From assembly GCA_018697095.1 (NCBI GenBank), contig JABHSG010000003.1:285505-349504 (forward strand): a stretch of 64,000 bases of DNA. The letters are read 5' to 3'. Below the pieces are notes generated by a model, which saw only the letters and a program-made list of their open reading frames with translations, was not told the origin of the DNA and ran no database searches. The position numbers were made by a program, and so were the translations under genes. This DNA comes from an archaeon. GTDB taxonomy: Archaea; Nanobdellota; Nanobdellia; Woesearchaeales; GW2011-AR9. Shown here piece by piece: positions 1,215 through 45,291 of this stretch. Position 1 is the first letter of the stretch. Each line of letters opens with the position of its first letter.

Positions 1215-3800
1215 CTAACTAGCAAACTCACTACTTCTACTCTCGAACTCTTTAGCCTCATTTAAAAATCTCTCAATTGTTTTAACAACATGCTCCTTTT
1301 GAGTCCCAAGAATCCCAGCAACTTTCTCAACAATTGCTGCATTATCCAATTCTTCAGTAGCACCATCGCTTCCAGTAGAGCCAACTACTGATAACTCAAA
1401 CACAAATGGCTTTTTCTTCTTAACAGCTTTCTTACCTTTCTTCCATAAAACAAAAAGTGCAGCAGCATAATCTACTAACTCAGATGTTTTACAACCAAGT
1501 AATTCGCAAGCCTTCACCAGTACTTCATCTCCCTTAGACATGTAATCAGCAGCAGCATCGCCAGCCAAATAATGCAAGCGCACAACTCCATCGCTAATCT
1601 TAGATGAAGAAACAATTACAATCTGTAAAGCCTCAAGTGTGTTATTCAAATGTGTTCCACCACAAGCTTCAACATCAACTCCATCAATATCTACTATACG
1701 TAAACTTTTTCCTGGAGCAACTCCTCCCTGATAGATTCGAACACCAAAGGTTCTTTCAGCTTCTGTTCGTGGCATGAAAAAATTCCCAATATCAATTCCA
1801 CTTTTAACAATTCTATTTGCTTCATCTTCAATAGCTTTTTCCTGCAAAGCCGATAACGAAGAATAGTGAGTTACATCTAAATGTGCACGGTCAAGTTTTT
1901 TAACAGCGCCAGCTTGGTTAATGTGATTACCCAGTACAGTGCGCGCAGCAGCATTTACAATATGTGCAGATGTATGATGTTGACTAAGCTGTTTACGTCT
2001 ATCAAAATCAATTTCACATGAAACTTCATCGCCAACAGAAAAAGAAGCAGCAGAAGATAATTCATGTACAATGTATTTTCCATACCTAAACAATCCAGCT
2101 ACCTTAATCCCAGCAATACTCCCAGTATCATAATCTTGTCCGCCAGACTTTGGGTAAAAATAAGTTTCATCTAAAACAACTAAGCGATCATTAACATAAA
2201 CAACTCGGGAACTAAACTCTGTAGTTGACCAATTCTTGTAATACGACACCTTCGTTTCAATTAGAGCAGATAACACTGATTCACTCACAAGCTGCTCTTC
2301 CTTGGCACCAACTACTTTTTTACTTTCACGCGCCGCCTGCCGTTCAGAAACTAGCATGTAAAAGTTCTCGGGGACATCTACATGGCCACCATTCTCCTTA
2401 GCATAAGAACTAACCATTTCCGGAGTTATTCCTTGGCTATCATAAAGTTCAATTAACTTATCAGAATCCAAAGAACCAAAAGAAATATTTTTCAAAACTC
2501 CAGCAGCCTTTAATTTAGACATCCTATATTTTTCTTCTTCAACATCAAGTATTTTCAAAGTATCATCAATATTAGAAAGTAACTCAGGGTAAAAGCTTTC
2601 CAATTCCAAAGCATGCCACTTAGCAATTTCTTGTAAACTAACATCCCACTTAAATTTGTCAATAAAAGAAAGTGCCCTACGTAAGATAGCTCGTAAATTA
2701 TATCCTCCACCAGTATTACTAGGCAATTGCCCATCGTTAATAGAAATTAGTAGTGCACGAGAATGTTCAATCACAGAATATGCAGCCGCCATTGGCAAAA
2801 CTTTTTCCTGCAAACCAATTCGTCCACCAACAAAACCAAGCTTTTTTGCAACATCTTCCCATGCTTTCTCAATATCATCTACTTCATCGATATTCAAACT
2901 ACCTGCATAAACACTAAATCTACTAAGCAATTCTAAGTCATAATCAAGCGAAACCTTTTCTCTAAACTTCCCTAACACTTCTGGAAAAACTGCTTCATAA
3001 GAATTAGCAGTCCCTTGACTAAACCATGCAATCCTCTCCATTCCAAGACCCATGTCAAGTACTTTAATTCCAAGTTCCTTTCTACCAGTAGAGGTTTGCT
3101 CATACATCATATAGACTTGGTTAAATAATTCAAGTCCGCCAGAAAAAAATTCCATACAAGGTCCAAAATTTCCGCCACCAGCCCATGCATCTTCATGCAA
3201 GACCAACTCTTCTTTTGGAACCCCAACAACAGTTATTAAAAAATCAAATACATCTTTGAAAGCTTTATTCAAATCCCACTCGTCATGACCAACAAATTGA
3301 TGTTGTCCAATCATTACAAAACCCGTATAATGCGCTCCAGTAATTCCAACGTTATCAACATCTCCAAAACGTAAACAAAATTGTGGAATCACGAGCCTTT
3401 TTGCAGGAGGATCAACTTCTCCACTAATCACAAACGGTTGAAATGCAGCAATTGAAGCAATAGTAAAGTCAACTGTTGGATTCCACCTAGCTACTACTGG
3501 ATACCTATCAACACCTTGGTAACCACGTGATTCAAAATGAGATTTAAATTTCTCCCAAACTTGAATGTAAGATAATGAATTAACTCCTTCCTTTTTTCCT
3601 GCAACTGAGAACTCACCAACACATGCAGAATCTCCACAAACAGTTCGAGATGAATCAACAGACCAAAAATTCATCCCACACAAAGAACAGCTATCTCGAG
3701 AATATCCTTCAGCGCGCAATACTTCTACAGCATAAAACGAATCAGGTGAAGCTCCAGCCTCAACCTTAAACTCCTTTTTAATCTCCTTATCACTTTTCAT
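1215..3800 (-). CDS. alaS: alanyl-tRNA synthetase, archaeal type
   Basis: 861 aa; editing-domain HxxxH (HTSAHIVNAAARTVLGNH) and CGGTH motifs; N-terminal Cys-rich segment typical of archaeal AlaRS. Confidence 0.93.
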   Translation of the reverse strand: MKSDKEIKKEFKVEAGASPDSFYAVEVLRAEGYSRDSCSLCGMNFWSVDSSRTVCGDSACVGEFSVAGKKEGVNSLSYIQVWEKFKSHFESRGYQGVDRYPVVARWNPTVDFTIASIAAFQPFVISGEVDPPAKRLVIPQFCLRFGDVDNVGITGAHYTGFVMIGQHQFVGHDEWDLNKAFKDVFDFLITVVGVPKEELVLHEDAWAGGGNFGPCMEFFSGGLELFNQVYMMYEQTSTGRKELGIKVLDMGLGMERIAWFSQGTANSYEAVFPEVLGKFREKVSLDYDLELLSRFSVYAGSLNIDEVDDIEKAWEDVAKKLGFVGGRIGLQEKVLPMAAAYSVIEHSRALLISINDGQLPSNTGGGYNLRAILRRALSFIDKFKWDVSLQEIAKWHALELESFYPELLSNIDDTLKILDVEEEKYRMSKLKAAGVLKNISFGSLDSDKLIELYDSQGITPEMVSSYAKENGGHVDVPENFYMLVSERQAARESKKVVGAKEEQLVSESVLSALIETKVSYYKNWSTTEFSSRVVYVNDRLVVLDETYFYPKSGGQDYDTGSIAGIKVAGLFRYGKYIVHELSSAASFSVGDEVSCEIDFDRRKQLSQHHTSAHIVNAAARTVLGNHINQAGAVKKLDRAHLDVTHYSSLSALQEKAIEDEANRIVKSGIDIGNFFMPRTEAERTFGVRIYQGGVAPGKSLRIVDIDGVDVEACGGTHLNNTLEALQIVIVSSSKISDGVVRLHYLAGDAAADYMSKGDEVLVKACELLGCKTSELVDYAAALFVLWKKGKKAVKKKKPFVFELSVVGSTGSDGATEELDNAAIVEKVAGILGTQKEHVVKTIERFLNEAKEFESRSSEFAS

Positions 3801-3867
3801 AACACAAATTCAAGAGAAGCACACTTTTTAAATCTAGCTTTATAGTTTAACTACTACACCAACAGAA

Positions 3868-4599
3868 TTACTTTTTCCGAGCCTTAGCCATGCTCCATAA
3901 AATCTCAAAGTATTTTCTATATGCGTCAGCCACAGCTTTGCTATGCATCACAATCCCATGCATCGGCTGACCCCAAAGTATCAATGCAACTTTATCCCCA
4001 TAGATATGGGTAGGGTTTGGATTAAACAAATTGTCAGGTAACAGTTTATACTTAGATTGTTTTCCTTCAAAAAATGTAACTGCGCTCTCACGAGACAAAA
4101 GTTTCTCAACAAATCCAGCACGCTGCATTTTTGCAATATGCTGCTTGATCGCAATCGGATCAAAATCTAAAAACAGTTCTTCATCAATTCCCATAGCACA
4201 TAACTGACCACCGCAAGAAGACAAAGTTTTGAAAATGTCAGTATAAATATTACGTAGTACCAATTTACCTTTAATCACTTCAACTTGTGTTTCATCATGA
4301 TCCTTAAGATACATCTCTTTAAGTTTTGGAAGTACGGAATCAAATTCTAATTTTTTCTCATCCAAATAATCATGAATTTTTTCAGGATCCATTGCTTTGA
4401 AGTGTTTTGTTTTTCCAATTAGGACATATGATACAAATCCTTTCTCCAGTAATCTCTCCAAAGCATCATAGCAAACTTGTCGATGTAATCCCGACTTCCC
4501 CGCAAGCTTATACGCAGTAATCTCACCAACACTAATCAAGGTCAAATAAATTTCAACTTCATTAGCTGTTAGTCCAAGTTTTTTAAGTACGAGTCTCAT
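3868..4599 (-). CDS. TrmB-family transcriptional regulator (paralog 1)
   Basis: N-terminal winged HTH (LGLTANEVEIYLTLISVGEITAYKLAGKSGLHRQVCYDALERLLEKGFV) plus a C-terminal TrmB-like domain; paralogous to 61423..62175. Confidence 0.8.
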   Translation of the reverse strand: MRLVLKKLGLTANEVEIYLTLISVGEITAYKLAGKSGLHRQVCYDALERLLEKGFVSYVLIGKTKHFKAMDPEKIHDYLDEKKLEFDSVLPKLKEMYLKDHDETQVEVIKGKLVLRNIYTDIFKTLSSCGGQLCAMGIDEELFLDFDPIAIKQHIAKMQRAGFVEKLLSRESAVTFFEGKQSKYKLLPDNLFNPNPTHIYGDKVALILWGQPMHGIVMHSKAVADAYRKYFEILWSMAKARKK

Positions 4600-13227: not shown

Positions 13228-13296
13228 ATAGTCAAACAAGCTTTATAAAGAACCTTTATTCTTTTACCTTTATTCAAGATAAATTAAACTCATAAA

Positions 13297-15482: not shown

Positions 15483-16373
15483 GTGGCAGATAGAATCTTA
15501 ACAGAAAATAACCCAAATAATCAAAATAACAGCATTTCTATTTTTGAAGACAAACAAGTTCGTAAAATTTGGCACAATGATGAGTGGTGGTTCTCAGTAG
15601 TAGATATTGTAGGAGTACTTACTGGAAGTCCAGATGGAAGAAATTACTGGAAAGTTCTTAAACATCGCTTAAACAAAGAAGGAAGCGAGGTGGTTACAAA
15701 TTGTAACCAACTGAAATTATCAGCTTCAGATGGAAAATCCTACAAGACAGATTGCTGTAACACAGAAGGTGCCTTTCGTATCATCCAATCAATTCCTTCT
15801 AAAAATGCTGAACATTTCAAATTATGGCTAGCTAAAACAGGTTATGAAAGAATTCAAGAAATAGAAAATCCTGAACTTGCAAGAATCAGGGCCAGAAAAT
15901 ACTATGAAACAAAAGGTTATCCAAAAGATTGGATTAATCAAAGAGTAGATTCAATTGAAGCTCGACAGAATCTTACCAAAGAATGGAAACAGCGTGATGT
16001 CAAAGAAGGAAAAGAGTTTGCTATTCTCACAAATGAAATTCATAAGGCTACTTTTGATAAAGATGTAAAAGAACATAAAGAGCACAAAAATCTACCAATA
16101 AAAAACAAAAACCTAAACCTTAGGGACAACATGACTAAACTAGAGTTAGCATTCGCAAAACTTGCAGAAACAGCAACAAAGGAAATTGCCAAAGCAAAAG
16201 ACGCCCAAGGGTTTAACCAAAACAAAACTGCAGCCCATAAGGGTGGTACAATAGCAGGAAACGCAAGAAAGGCACTAGAAAAAGAAACAAATACTATTGT
16301 TATAAGCAAAAACAATTCTCAGCATCTTGTAGAAACAAAACAAATCAAGAAGATAAAAAACAATAAAATCTAA
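15483..16373 (+). CDS. Bro-N domain protein, DinD-like (DNA-damage-inducible protein D / phage antirepressor-like)
   Basis: N-terminal Bro-N signature (ISIFEDKQVRKIWHNDEWWFSVVDIVGVL); C-terminal half resembles the E. coli DinD C-terminal region. Confidence 0.55.
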   Translation: MADRILTENNPNNQNNSISIFEDKQVRKIWHNDEWWFSVVDIVGVLTGSPDGRNYWKVLKHRLNKEGSEVVTNCNQLKLSASDGKSYKTDCCNTEGAFRIIQSIPSKNAEHFKLWLAKTGYERIQEIENPELARIRARKYYETKGYPKDWINQRVDSIEARQNLTKEWKQRDVKEGKEFAILTNEIHKATFDKDVKEHKEHKNLPIKNKNLNLRDNMTKLELAFAKLAETATKEIAKAKDAQGFNQNKTAAHKGGTIAGNARKALEKETNTIVISKNNSQHLVETKQIKKIKNNKI

Positions 16374-20272: not shown

Positions 20273-20330
20273 TCTTACAATGTAAACTTTGTTTACATGT
20301 ACAAGTGAGTTAGTTCACTTTGTATTTGTC
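20273..20330. repeat. bipartite palindromic element, copy A
   Basis: Same core as 41127..41182; lies between the ABC ATPase stop (20315) and permease start (20256), overlapping the last codons of the ATPase gene. Confidence 0.85.
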
Positions 20331-39530: not shown

Positions 39531-39629
39531 GCCCCGGTGGCTTAGCGGTTATAGCAGTCGGCTGTTATTCGTATTAATTCAATACGACAAGATACCGACA
39601 GATCGCCAGTTCAAATCTGGCCCGGGGCG
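39531..39629 (+). tRNA. tRNA-Asn (anticodon GUU) with ~26-nt intron in the anticodon loop
   Basis: Acceptor GCCCCGG/CCGGGGC; D arm GCU(U)-AGCGGUUA-(U)AGC; anticodon stem GUCGG...CCGAC with loop CUGUUA then a hairpin-containing intron; T arm GCCAG-UUCAAAU-CUGGC; discriminator G. Confidence 0.75.
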
Positions 39630-40526: not shown

Positions 40527-40976
40527 GTGGCGATCAAAAAAAGATCAAGTAAAAGATCAACTTCCAAACGTAGTTCTGTAAAAAGAGCTCCGGCAAGACT
40601 TTCAGACGCAAGTTCATTTATTCAAAAAGAAAAAATGGAATTGCACAAAGTAGCACATTACTGTTTTTTAATAGGGCTTTTAATTGCACTAGTAGCAGGA
40701 CTTCCATGGTTTGCAAAAACTATTGATTCTCGTGCACTTATGACAACACTAGTTCTTCTAGGTTTCATTGTGGGTTTATTCAATCTAACAACTAAAGATA
40801 CAATGCCATTTTTAGTGGCATCAATTGCACTTATGCTGGCTGGAATTGTAAATCTTTCTTTAATTCCAGTAATTGGTGAAGCTTTGCGTTCAATGCTTAG
40901 TAATATTGTTGTCTTTGTGGTTCCTGGAGCAATCGTTCTGGCAGTGAAAACTGTATATACTCTTGCTTCTAAGTAA
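40527..40976 (+). CDS. membrane protein with Lys/Ser-rich N-terminus; GTG start
   Basis: GTG preceded by GAGGTGATAGG; three to four TM helices; the 3' end is duplicated downstream. Confidence 0.5.
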   Translation: MAIKKRSSKRSTSKRSSVKRAPARLSDASSFIQKEKMELHKVAHYCFLIGLLIALVAGLPWFAKTIDSRALMTTLVLLGFIVGLFNLTTKDTMPFLVASIALMLAGIVNLSLIPVIGEALRSMLSNIVVFVVPGAIVLAVKTVYTLASK

Positions 40977-41127
40977 GCAAACTTTTTTCTTTTATTCTTT
41001 TTCCTTTATTTTGCAAGACTAAACGAACGTAGTGAGTGCATGTCTGCTCAGATGTCAACCGGCTGTGGCAGTTGGCAGTGAAAACTGTATATACTCTTGC
41101 TTCTAAGTAAGCAAACTTTTTTCTTTC
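40941..41127. repeat. 53-bp perfect direct repeat (40941-40993 and 41075-41127) flanking an 81-bp spacer
   Basis: GGCAGTGAAAACTGTATATACTCTTGCTTCTAAGTAAGCAAACTTTTTTCTTT occurs twice; the first copy contains the stop codon of the 40527..40976 gene. Confidence 0.9.
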
Positions 41128-41182
41128 TTATTTTACAATGTAAACTTTGTTTACATGTACAAGTGAGCTTGCTCACTTTGTA
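41127..41182. repeat. bipartite palindromic element, copy B (TGTAAAC-TTT-GTTTACA plus CAAGTGAGC-TT-GCTCACTTG)
   Basis: 34-nt identical core TACAATGTAAACTTTGTTTACATGTACAAGTGAG shared with 20273..20330. Confidence 0.85.
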
Positions 41183-41323
41183 TCTAAATTTCTACTTTTT
41201 CAACATTAAAAATAAGCTCATTTTATTTCTTTTGTCCTCTAAAAATTCCTTTTTTCTCTACTCTTTAAGACTACACAATATTTATAAGGCAGTTAGTATG
41301 TAGTCATAATTGAGGTGGTACTT

Positions 41324-41449
41324 ATGCAGAAATTGCATTTGAACTGTGGGGCATGTAAATTTCAATTTACAAGTTTGTTTTTTTCAGGAGTTTCTGGAGC
41401 ATTCTGTCCACATTGTAGGTCAAAGGTAACAAACCTTGTGACTTCATAA
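41324..41449 (+). CDS. small zinc-ribbon protein (41 aa); not in ORF track
   Basis: GAGGTGG RBS then MQKLHLNCGACKFQFTSLFFSGVSGAFCPHCRSKVTNLVTS with CxxC-x18-CxxC. Confidence 0.3.
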   Translation: MQKLHLNCGACKFQFTSLFFSGVSGAFCPHCRSKVTNLVTS

Positions 41450-42399: not shown

Positions 42400-45291
42400 G
42401 TGGGTTCTCACTTAAAAAAATCAATCAAATTAGTCATTTCTCTAGCTTTAGCAAAAAAATCTCCTTTTCATTTATTTATAAAAAAACCACGAAAATCAAG
42501 ATTCTCAAAAAACAAAATATTGTCTAGAAAAACCAAACCATCAAAAAATAAACCTAGTGGAAAAGTACCTCAAAAAATCCATTCTCTTTTCATTTTCATA
42601 GTACTCGTGATTTCAATAGTTTCTTTATTTTTATTCTCTAGTGGCCAATATGATTACTCTAATAATCTTTCAGGAGCAGCAGTAGGTGGCGGCACAGGAT
42701 ATATTGGCGTTATTGCATCAGTTCCCTCAATAAGTTCTGCAAACATTACTTCTTCTGATGTTTTTAGAAATGCTACAATTGATAACATTACTGCGCAAAT
42801 ATCTTCAGGTGCAAATAAAGATATTTTCAATTGGTATCTAAACTCTTCCTCAATAAATGTTCTGAACATGCCTTTTGAAAAAGTTAACTCTTCAATAACT
42901 TCAAATGCAAGAGATTATTCTCCTAATAGTTATGACGGTTCAATCTCGGGGGATCCTTTTTGGAATGCCACAGGTGGTTTTGATGGCAATGCCTCTTATG
43001 AGTTGGATGGGGATGCTGACTTTATCTCTTTTAGTAGCGCAGCAAATATATTCTCTTCAAGCCAAGGATCTTGGGTGTTTTGGTTTAAAACAAATGAAGA
43101 CACTGGGTCAAGTGGGCAAGCAATACTTGTTGCTTATACTTCTGGTTCAGTGTCTAACATTCAAAGGATTGAAATAAATGGGAGTAGTTTAAAATTTTTA
43201 AATAAAGCAAGCTCTGATAATTTCCGTGGACATATTGATATCTCAAATTTAATCGGGTCGTGGCATCATGTTGCCTTAACTGGCGGCCCAGGCGGAAATA
43301 ATGCTTATGTTGATGGTGTACAAGTAACTCCTGTTTATATCTCAGGATCATCATCAAGTGAACATTGGTTAGATGATTTAACTGAAAATACGTTTCAAAT
43401 TTCTGGCCACGACATTGGTGGCGGTCAAACAGCTTTATTCAATGGTTCAATTGATGAAGTTCAAATATTTAATGAAAAATTAACTGCTAATCAAGTAGCT
43501 GCAATGTACAACAACCAATCTAATCTAATCACAAGTAGCCAAACTGATGTAAATGATAATTGGTCTTATTGTGTTACTCCAAATAACGCTAATGTTGATG
43601 GAGCAACTGTTTGTTCTGATGGTTTAGTTGTTTTAGATCATATCCCTAGTATCTCATCTGTACTCGTTAATACTACGACTCCTACAACAAACTCTTCTTC
43701 AGCTAATATCACTTCTCATGTGACTGTTACTGATCCTACAAATGATCAATTAAAATTAATCTATGATTGGAAACTTAATGATTCTTCGATTGCTCATTTA
43801 ATTTTACCAATGGAAAAAATTAATGATTCGAACTCTAGTAACCTTAGGGATTATTCACAGTATAGTAATTCAGTGACAGAATATCAAGGTGTCCTTTGGA
43901 ACGCAACTGGCGGTTTTGATGGAAATGGAAGTTATGAGTTTGATGGAGTTAATGATTATCTTAATGTAACTGATTCTCAAAATCTTAACTTAACTTCGCC
44001 TATAACTATTTCATTTTGGATGGCAACTAGTGAAGATATTGATGTGACTTCTACTTGGGGAATGCAAATGGTTGGCCGAGGTGAATATGGTGACCCCAGA
44101 AACTCCATGGACGTTAGAATCAGAGCAACTGGTGATGTGGTCGCTTTTAATTATGAGCACGGTTCTGGAACAAACGAAAATTATGCTCTTGGTACAATAG
44201 ATATTGCTGATGGTACTTGGCACCATATCGCTGCTACTTGGACCGGTACAAGATGCCTAGCTTACGTTGATGGTTCTGTGGATTCTAATGTCTCTTGTAC
44301 AAATACTCCTGGTCCTTTTGATGAAGGTTTTTCTATTGGTAAATCATTTGCTTCAGATCAAGATAATTTTAGTGGGTCAATTGATGAAGTAATGATTTTC
44401 AATCAATCTTTGTCAAGCGGGCAAATAAATTCTATCTTTCTAAATAAAACAGATCTAGTTGTCAATTCACAAACTAGTGGCGCAGATAATTGGTCTGTTT
44501 GTGTAACTGCTAATGATGATGATGTTGATAGTGCAACTGTTTGTTCAAGTAACTTAGAAGTTAACGACCCTCCTTCAAGTCCTGTTCTTGTGACTGCTGC
44601 AAATGCTTCAACACAAACAAATAGGAGTATAAAGTTCATTTGGAATAATTCTTTAGATGCTAATCTTGATGATGTAACAACTTATTTTTTACAATTTTCA
44701 AACGATTCTACTTTTTCAGAACTTATTGAAGACCAAAGTAGTTTGCCTGAAGATAATCTTAATGATAGTAACTTCACTCATTTTCCTGATTTGAATGTTG
44801 ATACAACTTTTTATTGGAGGGTAAAAGCAAGTGATGGGAAAGAAAACAGTTCTTGGGCAGAGTACTATAACTTCCAAGTTCTTTCAAGTAACGTGATTAG
44901 TTTACCTGTTAGTTCAGTGAATTTTAGTACAGTTAACGATACTGAAGATAAAAATACTACAATGCCTCAGTATGATCCAATGATGGTTTCAAATGATGGA
45001 AACATTCCTTTGAATATTTCAATTAATGCAACTGCTATGTTTGATTCCGCGGGAAGTTTATGGCAGTATTTAATTGGGGCTAATGAAACAAACTCTTTTC
45101 TAACTGCAGAAAATAGTACTTGGACAAATTTAACTTCAATTCAAAGTCTTGCAATTACTTATTTTTGGCATGAAAATAATTCTAATAATGCAAACCGAGC
45201 GAATTTGAATCTATTGGTGCGCTCAGCTTCAGATGAATCTGGTGGAGAAAAATCTTCTACTATATATATCAGTTCGGAGGCTAGTGAGTAA
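42400..45291 (+). CDS. large cell-surface protein: N-terminal TM/signal anchor, two LamG/ConA-like lectin domains, FN3-like domain, many N-glycosylation sequons
   Basis: Two ~230-aa repeats with NATGGFDGN(A/G)SYE(L/F)DG...W(V/I)(F/S)FW...W(H)H(V/I)A(L/A)T...YVDG...GSIDEV(Q/M)IFN, matching the LamG_3 pattern; WRVKASDG FN3-like segment; abundant NxS/T. Confidence 0.7.
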   Translation: MGSHLKKSIKLVISLALAKKSPFHLFIKKPRKSRFSKNKILSRKTKPSKNKPSGKVPQKIHSLFIFIVLVISIVSLFLFSSGQYDYSNNLSGAAVGGGTGYIGVIASVPSISSANITSSDVFRNATIDNITAQISSGANKDIFNWYLNSSSINVLNMPFEKVNSSITSNARDYSPNSYDGSISGDPFWNATGGFDGNASYELDGDADFISFSSAANIFSSSQGSWVFWFKTNEDTGSSGQAILVAYTSGSVSNIQRIEINGSSLKFLNKASSDNFRGHIDISNLIGSWHHVALTGGPGGNNAYVDGVQVTPVYISGSSSSEHWLDDLTENTFQISGHDIGGGQTALFNGSIDEVQIFNEKLTANQVAAMYNNQSNLITSSQTDVNDNWSYCVTPNNANVDGATVCSDGLVVLDHIPSISSVLVNTTTPTTNSSSANITSHVTVTDPTNDQLKLIYDWKLNDSSIAHLILPMEKINDSNSSNLRDYSQYSNSVTEYQGVLWNATGGFDGNGSYEFDGVNDYLNVTDSQNLNLTSPITISFWMATSEDIDVTSTWGMQMVGRGEYGDPRNSMDVRIRATGDVVAFNYEHGSGTNENYALGTIDIADGTWHHIAATWTGTRCLAYVDGSVDSNVSCTNTPGPFDEGFSIGKSFASDQDNFSGSIDEVMIFNQSLSSGQINSIFLNKTDLVVNSQTSGADNWSVCVTANDDDVDSATVCSSNLEVNDPPSSPVLVTAANASTQTNRSIKFIWNNSLDANLDDVTTYFLQFSNDSTFSELIEDQSSLPEDNLNDSNFTHFPDLNVDTTFYWRVKASDGKENSSWAEYYNFQVLSSNVISLPVSSVNFSTVNDTEDKNTTMPQYDPMMVSNDGNIPLNISINATAMFDSAGSLWQYLIGANETNSFLTAENSTWTNLTSIQSLAITYFWHENNSNNANRANLNLLVRSASDESGGEKSSTIYISSEASE

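Follow-up and report, generated by a model that had tools for sequence, protein, structure and literature searches.

A 134-bp insertion/deletion between 54-bp direct repeats at the 3′ end of a membrane-protein gene in a near-clonal population of an uncultured archaeon

The window considered here, by which we mean the whole 64-kb stretch of DNA that was analysed, comes from an uncultured marine DPANN-type (Woesearchaeota-like) archaeon with a GC content of 35%. Within it, the 3′ end of a membrane-protein gene is present twice, once in its expected place and once a short distance downstream in non-coding DNA. The locus raises the question of how such a duplication came about, and whether the DNA enclosed by the two copies has a role of its own. 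Site-specific integration, a scar or recombination hotspot, and a small structured RNA were all put forward when the locus was originally predicted to be of interest.

The direct repeat and its surroundings

The repeat is perfect over 54 of 54 nt (TGGCAGTGAAAACTGTATATACTCTTGCTTCTAAGTAAGCAAACTTTTTTCTTT), with copies R1 and R2 at 40939-40992 and 41073-41126, a period of 134 nt and a spacer of 80 nt. It is composed of the last 38 nt of the gene at 40527..40976, including the stop codon, followed by 16 nt of downstream sequence. This pair is the sole long perfect repeat across the 64-kb window, and none of 100 dinucleotide shuffles produced a match to it, even when up to three mismatches were allowed, so that a chance origin is excluded. 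The original prediction had correctly picked out a perfect direct repeat that duplicates the end of the gene, with 38 coding nt including the stop codon now found to lie inside it, and the offset of 134 bp between the copies is confirmed as the period. Its length was given as 53 bp and is 54 nt; the proposed intervals (40941-40993 and 41075-41127) are shifted and take in one mismatch (T vs C); the composition, described as 33 nt of gene plus 20 nt downstream, is 38 plus 16; and the spacer, reported as 81 bp, measures 80 nt. The features of the locus, together with the second copy of a neighbouring palindromic element, are as follows.

40527..40976, + strand: membrane-protein gene of 149 aa with its 3′ end duplicated; an ORF called on all contigs
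40939..40992, + strand: repeat copy 1 (R1); gene 3′ end, stop codon, hairpin and oligo-T, a putative terminator module
40993..41023, + strand: spacer part S1; 31 nt, 23% GC, T-rich, resembling a native 3′ flank
41024..41072, + strand: spacer part S2; 49 nt, 55% GC, an orphan sequence ending in TGGCAGT, the first 7 nt of the repeat
41073..41126, + strand: repeat copy 2 (R2); non-coding, 100% identical to R1
40993..41126, no strand assigned: the 134-bp unit (spacer plus one repeat); present in 13 samples and absent from 2, its exact position being free to shift within the 54-nt repeat
41133..41183, no strand assigned: palindromic double-hairpin element, copy B, 51 nt; in both alleles, adjoining the indel and outside it
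20275-20325: palindromic element, copy A, 51 nt; 94% identical to copy B
41324-41449, + strand: zinc-ribbon ORF of 41 aa (MQKLHLNCGACKFQFTSLFFSGVSGAFCPHCRSKVTNLVTS); conserved, and called as a gene in no contig annotation

The content of the repeat suggests what was duplicated. Fold prediction places a small hairpin, TTGCTT-CTAAGT-AAGCAA, around the stop codon in R1, and this is accompanied by an oligo-T tract, CTTTTTTCTTT, of a type that we take to be a terminator from general knowledge of archaeal termination. Since relatives carry the identical stop codon followed by AACTTTTTTCTTT, the repeat is best read as the C-terminal codons of the membrane-protein gene together with its oligo-T terminator module, and R2 would then be a second terminator module.

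R2 lies within a non-coding stretch (40977..41323) that is bounded by the conserved small zinc-ribbon ORF, and the gene callers called nothing between 40976 and 41486 on any contig. The ORF has an SD-like sequence, GAGGTGGT, upstream, and its CxxC...CPxC motif and its position before a VCA0040-like gene are both kept in three other species (L011, L013 and L016). The palindromic element adjoins the repeat, as originally noted, although it starts 6 nt past R2 and not directly after it. All three differences between its copies A and B fall in hairpin 2 (GAGCTTGCTC vs GAGTTAGTTC). On the minus strand, copy A fills the 58 nt that separate the genes for an ABC-transporter ATPase and its permease, and provides the ATPase gene with its stop codon. 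Neither the viral collection nor the corresponding loci of related species contain the element, which could be REP- or MITE-like.

Homologues of the membrane protein number 426, almost all of them from MAGs that bear the label Woesearchaeota, Nanoarchaeota or 'archaeon', and the family, conserved in Woesearchaeota/Nanoarchaeota, matches no Pfam domain. Its gene neighbours in the window include those for TFB, aminoacyl-tRNA synthetases, ribosomal proteins, DnaK/DnaJ/GrpE and an intron-containing tRNA detected by Rfam only. This last is a 99-nt, apparently intron-containing tRNA gene at 39531-39629 (+ strand; Rfam, 56.5 bits), which is missed by ARAGORN, a program that reported no tRNA genes anywhere in the window. 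Annotating all 64 kb with Pfam revealed no integrase, transposase, Cas1 or reverse transcriptase. Two other genes deserve mention. A Bro-N domain protein, of a kind typical of viral and phage DNA-binding proteins, is encoded amid housekeeping genes at 15483-16373 (+ strand), and a Laminin_G_3 surface-protein gene (963 aa) contains repeats at 43438-43616 and 44368-44546 that are 930 nt apart and 74-77% identical, which indicates an internal domain duplication.

Long and short alleles in otherwise identical genomes

Contigs carrying this locus were gathered through exact-protein look-ups with the membrane protein and the products of both flanking genes, and they derive from many samples and several assemblers. 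They represent 15 independent metagenome assemblies (samples), all of them 99.95-100% identical to the window. In 13 of the 15 samples the repeat-spacer-repeat arrangement (the long allele) is present with identical sequence, and it was recovered in metaSPAdes, MEGAHIT k141 and JGI assemblies. The remaining two samples have a single repeat (the short allele), in which exactly 134 bp are missing and all else is unchanged. These are ERZ4200967, a SPAdes assembly at 3.6x coverage that is also deposited at NCBI, and ERZ27237566, a MEGAHIT k141 assembly from a different project; the contigs concerned (L006/L020 and L024) read upstream-R-downstream and are otherwise identical to the long form. The membrane-protein ORF is intact and identical in both alleles. 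The comparison of close relatives that was originally suggested has thus revealed an insertion polymorphism, with the exact 134-bp unit lacking in 2 of 15 samples.

The SNPs among the contigs are singletons only, and none is common to both short-form contigs or separates short from long forms; with genomes so nearly identical, this argues that the indel is either very recent or recurrent. We considered whether the long form might be an assembly artefact, and this was ruled out because the same sequence emerges from SPAdes, MEGAHIT k141 and JGI assemblies and from 13 samples.

Contigs break at the repeat in several assemblies (L008/L026, L027 and L033), as would be expected of an assembly graph that is mixed or repeated there. 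One case is GCA_018658095.1, in which contigs JABHVX010000002.1 (L008/L032) and JABHVX010000003.1 (L026) are adjacent and overlap by 71 nt across R1 (window 40925-40995): a 326-kb contig stops 3 nt past R1, and a 103-kb contig begins 14 nt before R1. The break point is 3 nt off the position at which the long and short alleles diverge, and the polymorphism leaves the break partly unexplained. Another contig, L027 (ERZ4200980 NODE_5599), starts at positions 1-15 with an Illumina adapter remnant, ACGCTCTTCCGATCT, joined directly to the oligo-T tract of R2; this start is adapter contamination in a public assembly.

Composition of the spacer and the locus in related species

The spacer is made up of two dissimilar parts, and its original description as GC-richer holds for the last 49 nt (55% GC) and not for the first 31 nt (23% GC). 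The first part, S1, taken together with the last 2 nt of R1 (40991-41023), aligns at 28 of 33 positions with 13255-13283, in the 3′ flank of the S27e gene and upstream of the eIF-2alpha gene. When compared against the whole window, the score of this alignment was reached by one of 200 dinucleotide shuffles (p about 0.005). The two sites have in common the T-rich motif TTTATTCTTTT[A/T]CCTTTATT..CAAGA.TAAA, a 20-mer of which occurs within the window at these two places only, and the motif could be one that recurs in the terminators or UTRs of this genome. On the strength of the alignment, S1 looks like native terminator-type intergenic DNA and not like foreign DNA; since the identity is only about 85%, it would not be a fresh copy of the S27e flank.

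The second part, S2, is compositionally foreign or at least atypical, its GC content of 55% compared with 35% for the genome placing it in the top 0.5% of 49-nt windows. The junction of S2 with R2 reads TGGCAGT/TGGCAGT, two tandem copies of the same 7 nt; annealing at a microhomology would leave a single copy of TGGCAGT and not two. The similarity of S1 to 13255-13283 is the only match found for the spacer. S2 has no similarity in the window or in the fetched loci by blastn-short, and there is no other copy of the spacer in the window. Exact-pattern scans with three sub-patterns of the spacer found it absent from viral contigs and likewise from genome and metagenome contigs; blastn against phages, plasmids and E. 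coli genomes (these to pick up conserved rRNA pieces) gave no match; and neither did a protein-database search with the peptides of both open frames in the spacer. A second, attP-like copy of the repeat core or of the spacer was found in none of the viral, genome, metagenome, phage and plasmid collections, a weak test given that these collections do not contain this lineage.

Two simple derivations of the spacer were tried and rejected. It might have decayed from a copy of the palindromic element, or of the DNA that follows R2, which appears plausible by eye and in a MAFFT alignment, but the local alignments are at chance level (p = 0.13-0.88). Replication slippage giving a simple tandem duplication is likewise excluded, since what follows R2 bears no resemblance to the spacer (p = 0.13-0.3).

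No duplication is present at this locus in relatives whose proteins are 66-78% identical. The order of the membrane-protein gene, the zinc-ribbon ORF and the VCA0040-like gene is kept among them, with nothing else between in L013-L018, and in these the gap from the membrane-protein gene to the VCA0040-like gene is 343-378 bp, compared with 376 bp in the short allele and 510 bp in the long allele. These gap lengths weakly favour the short form as the ancestral one. The relatives were also used to ask which junction is ancestral, R-to-spacer or R-to-palindrome, and no comparison beyond the repeat gave p below 0.1: L011 favours R-to-palindrome by 3 nt, and L013 and L016 favour R-to-spacer, all non-significantly.

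In L011, the closest relative (a species at 78% protein identity), the gap downstream of the membrane-protein gene holds an additional orphan gene of 294 aa, and there is a tyrosine integrase gene (PHROG integrase, E = 3e-24) 1.3 kb upstream of the homologous membrane-protein gene. The genes just upstream are those for the tyrosine integrase, a DUF7718 protein and an HVO_A0114-like protein, and features of this locus are listed at 502-1743 (−), 2058-2821 (+) and 3544-4428 (−). No att repeats were found in L011, and no repeat or tRNA ties either the integrase or the 294-aa gene to the 3′ end of the membrane-protein gene. The integrase thus gives no more than a hint of a variable neighbourhood in L011.

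Possible origins of the 134-bp unit and comparison with known systems

The 134-bp polymorphism is an ordinary strain-level micro-indel in which the repeats behave as a recombination site. In accounting for it, we tentatively prefer, as the leading candidate among several, a reading in which the locus is a recent 134-bp insertion/deletion whose long allele is the remnant of a Campbell-type integration and whose repeats permit its loss. Incoming DNA carrying its own copy of the 54 bp, flanked by S2 and by S1, would have recombined once with the chromosomal copy. The product would be R-S1...S2-R, with the geometry of attL and attR, and any interior would later have been deleted down to 80 bp to leave a gene-less, CIME-like remnant. 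From there, homologous recombination or replication slippage between 54-bp repeats lying 80 bp apart would remove the unit precisely, a well-known process for such repeats, and with two perfect repeats so close together the short allele could be either a surviving empty site or a recurrent revertant. In keeping with integration, the repeat spans and restores the 3′ end of the gene and its length is inside the range of archaeal att sites. Against it, no contig has a larger element between the repeats, and shrinking an element to 80 bp with both att copies kept perfect requires at least two events. A more elaborate form of the same idea treats the 134 bp as a minimal att-flanked cassette without genes, which an integrase encoded elsewhere in the genome, or by a virus or plasmid of the community, would insert and excise in trans at the 3′ end of the membrane-protein gene. 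We regard this as very improbable; if true, no smaller cis-mobilizable element would be known, DPANN archaea would have their first example, and the cassette might serve the downstream genes as a switchable extra terminator.

A competing account that we find possible, though less convincing, dispenses with mobile DNA altogether and has the long allele arise from an ancestral short allele in one step, through a replication or repair error (MMBIR/FoSTeS-like, or the fill-in of a staggered break with filler) involving serial template switches. Starting from a stalled fork or a broken end, these switches would have joined a native-type T-rich piece (S1), an unrelated GC-rich piece (S2) and a re-copied 54 nt, and the adjacent palindrome could be what stalled the fork. 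The tiny, gene-less insert of 134 bp and the lack of recombinase genes in the window fit this account, as do the patchwork nature of the spacer, with S1 related to an intergenic region of its own genome (p about 0.005) and S2 unrelated, the 7-nt identity (TGGCAGT) exactly at the S2/R2 junction, and the strong hairpin-forming element 6 nt downstream. It is also economical, in that a single event suffices if the short allele is ancestral, with which the gap lengths of the relatives agree. However, S1 is only about 85% identical to its sole known partner where a fresh copy should be about 100% identical, no template for S2 was found, the two tandem copies of TGGCAGT are one more than microhomology annealing predicts, the junction of R2 with downstream DNA has no microhomology, and a plain tandem duplication is excluded (p = 0.13-0.3). 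To our knowledge, this class of mutation is also poorly documented in archaea. A recent Campbell-type or repair-generated micro-insertion is our best reading overall. Two further possibilities were considered. One is that there is no real polymorphism, the long form being fixed and the two short contigs having arisen when low-coverage assemblies collapsed the 54-nt repeat. In its favour, assemblers that close gaps by overlap can fuse a pair of contig ends if each contains the repeat, coverage of the SPAdes short contig is only 3.6x, a number of contigs stop in or at the repeat, and no SNP distinguishes short-form from long-form contigs; the SPAdes short form could indeed be an overlap-join artefact, which would leave one firm short-allele contig. 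That contig, from another project, was assembled by MEGAHIT with a final k of 141, and as this exceeds the whole 134-bp unit, it is not easily explained as an overlap collapse; De Bruijn assemblers create no k-mers absent from the reads. Moreover, 11 other low-coverage assemblies resolved the long form correctly, and on balance we consider a collapse in both samples unlikely.

The other possibility, that the unit is maintained because it is functional, appears more doubtful still. The spacer and R2 might make up a small transcription unit for an sRNA of about 90 nt, its 3′ end at the duplicated oligo-T and its last 54 nt in common with the membrane-protein mRNA, or the second terminator might be selected because it insulates the zinc-ribbon and VCA0040-like genes downstream; in both cases gain and loss through the repeats would act as a switch. 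The long allele is in the majority (13 of 15 samples), R2 gives a terminator complete with hairpin and oligo-T, S2 is conspicuously GC-rich for an AT-rich intergenic region, and a weak TATA-like sequence, CTTTATTTTG, is located about 25 nt upstream of S2. The further tests speak against it. Rfam returned nothing at gathering score for the spacer and nothing relevant at E <= 10, and the fold energies of five segments on both strands are like those of shuffled sequences (z +1.3 to −1.4; for the two strands, +0.4 and 0.0 for S2 plus R2, and +0.8 and +1.3 for the spacer). The spacer was scanned with a TATA profile derived from the genome's own promoters, and its best TATA-like site has two mismatches to that consensus, a level at which there are 9.5 sites per kb. 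The unit is missing from all related species, with neither conservation outside the population nor covariation, and genomes that are otherwise identical retain the short allele. The small RNA that was originally suggested for the spacer thus finds no backing in Rfam matches, folding or promoter signals above background. Small ORFs through the spacer were considered and dismissed: a 24-aa frame running into R2, a 13-aa frame (MSAQMSTGCGSWQ) and a 42-aa frame on the minus strand have no SD sequence, homologues or conservation. The 134-bp unit codes for no recognisable RNA or protein. It gives no sign of function and has no coding effect, and it is probably neutral; the sole plausible physiological effect would be to place a second terminator in tandem after the membrane-protein gene and ahead of the zinc-ribbon and VCA0040-like genes.

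Returning to the reading of a recent micro-insertion that can be lost through its repeats, the original suggestion of a scar or recombination hotspot agrees with the finding that the repeats mark a recent gain or loss, with 2 of 15 samples lacking the unit. Site-specific integration proper is unsubstantiated, as there is no recombinase in the 64 kb, no attP-like copy and no larger element, and S1 looks native. The locus nonetheless provides a clean case of micro-scale structural variation, a gain or loss of 134 bp by 54-bp repeats in a clonal environmental archaeal population. The polymorphism accounts, in part, for breaks in assemblies at this position, such as that between contigs 2 and 3 of GCA_018658095.1, and it is usable as a convenient strain marker. 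If a partner element with the same 54-bp core turned up, the locus would be an integration target site in DPANN archaea.

Several known systems have features in common with this arrangement. As with the target site duplications (TSDs) of transposons and casposons and the repeat duplication of CRISPR arrays, an insert lies between duplicated copies of a target. At 54 bp, the repeat far exceeds the transposon and casposon TSDs known to us. A transposon, MITE or casposon with a TSD was rejected on account of this 54-bp duplication, the ends of the spacer (TATTCTTT... and ...GTGGCAGT), which are not inverted repeats, the lack of a transposase or Cas1 gene in the window, and the lack of another spacer copy there. 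A CRISPR array, even a minimal one, was similarly set aside, as 38 nt of the 54-nt repeat are coding, there is a single spacer of 80 nt and there are no cas genes in the 64 kb; both lengths are outside the usual ranges for CRISPR repeats and spacers. Nor is a diversity-generating retroelement a suitable candidate, the repeats being 100% identical, the similarity ending at the left edge of the repeat, and no reverse transcriptase being encoded in the window.

Further structural parallels are with the attL and attR sites of tyrosine recombinases and with CIMEs, cis-mobilizable elements that have lost their integration and transfer genes and kept attL and attR (PMC5704250). In both, perfect direct repeats flank inserted DNA, and here the repeat contains the 3′ end of a gene whose ORF remains intact. 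Crenarchaeal att sites are 29-69 bp long with a median of 45 (PMC6563490), a range that includes the 54-bp repeat, and an empty-site allele is present in near-identical genomes. Thaumarchaeal elements are located in the 3′-distal parts of protein genes in 14 of 68 cases, and casposons also favour the 3′ ends of archaeal protein genes (PMC6563490). Unlike CIMEs, which have been described in bacteria and not in archaea, the interior is 80 bp, far below that of any described CIME. The locus also differs from att-bounded elements in that there is no integrase in the 64 kb, no attP partner was found and the interior is partly native-looking; plain repeat-mediated deletion can explain the loss of the unit, and a recombinase-dependent excision is hypothetical. 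Such deletion, whether by slipped-strand or homologous events, accounts for the loss of the unit and not for the creation of the repeat-spacer-repeat arrangement, but the short allele is exactly the product expected of it, in a clonal background.
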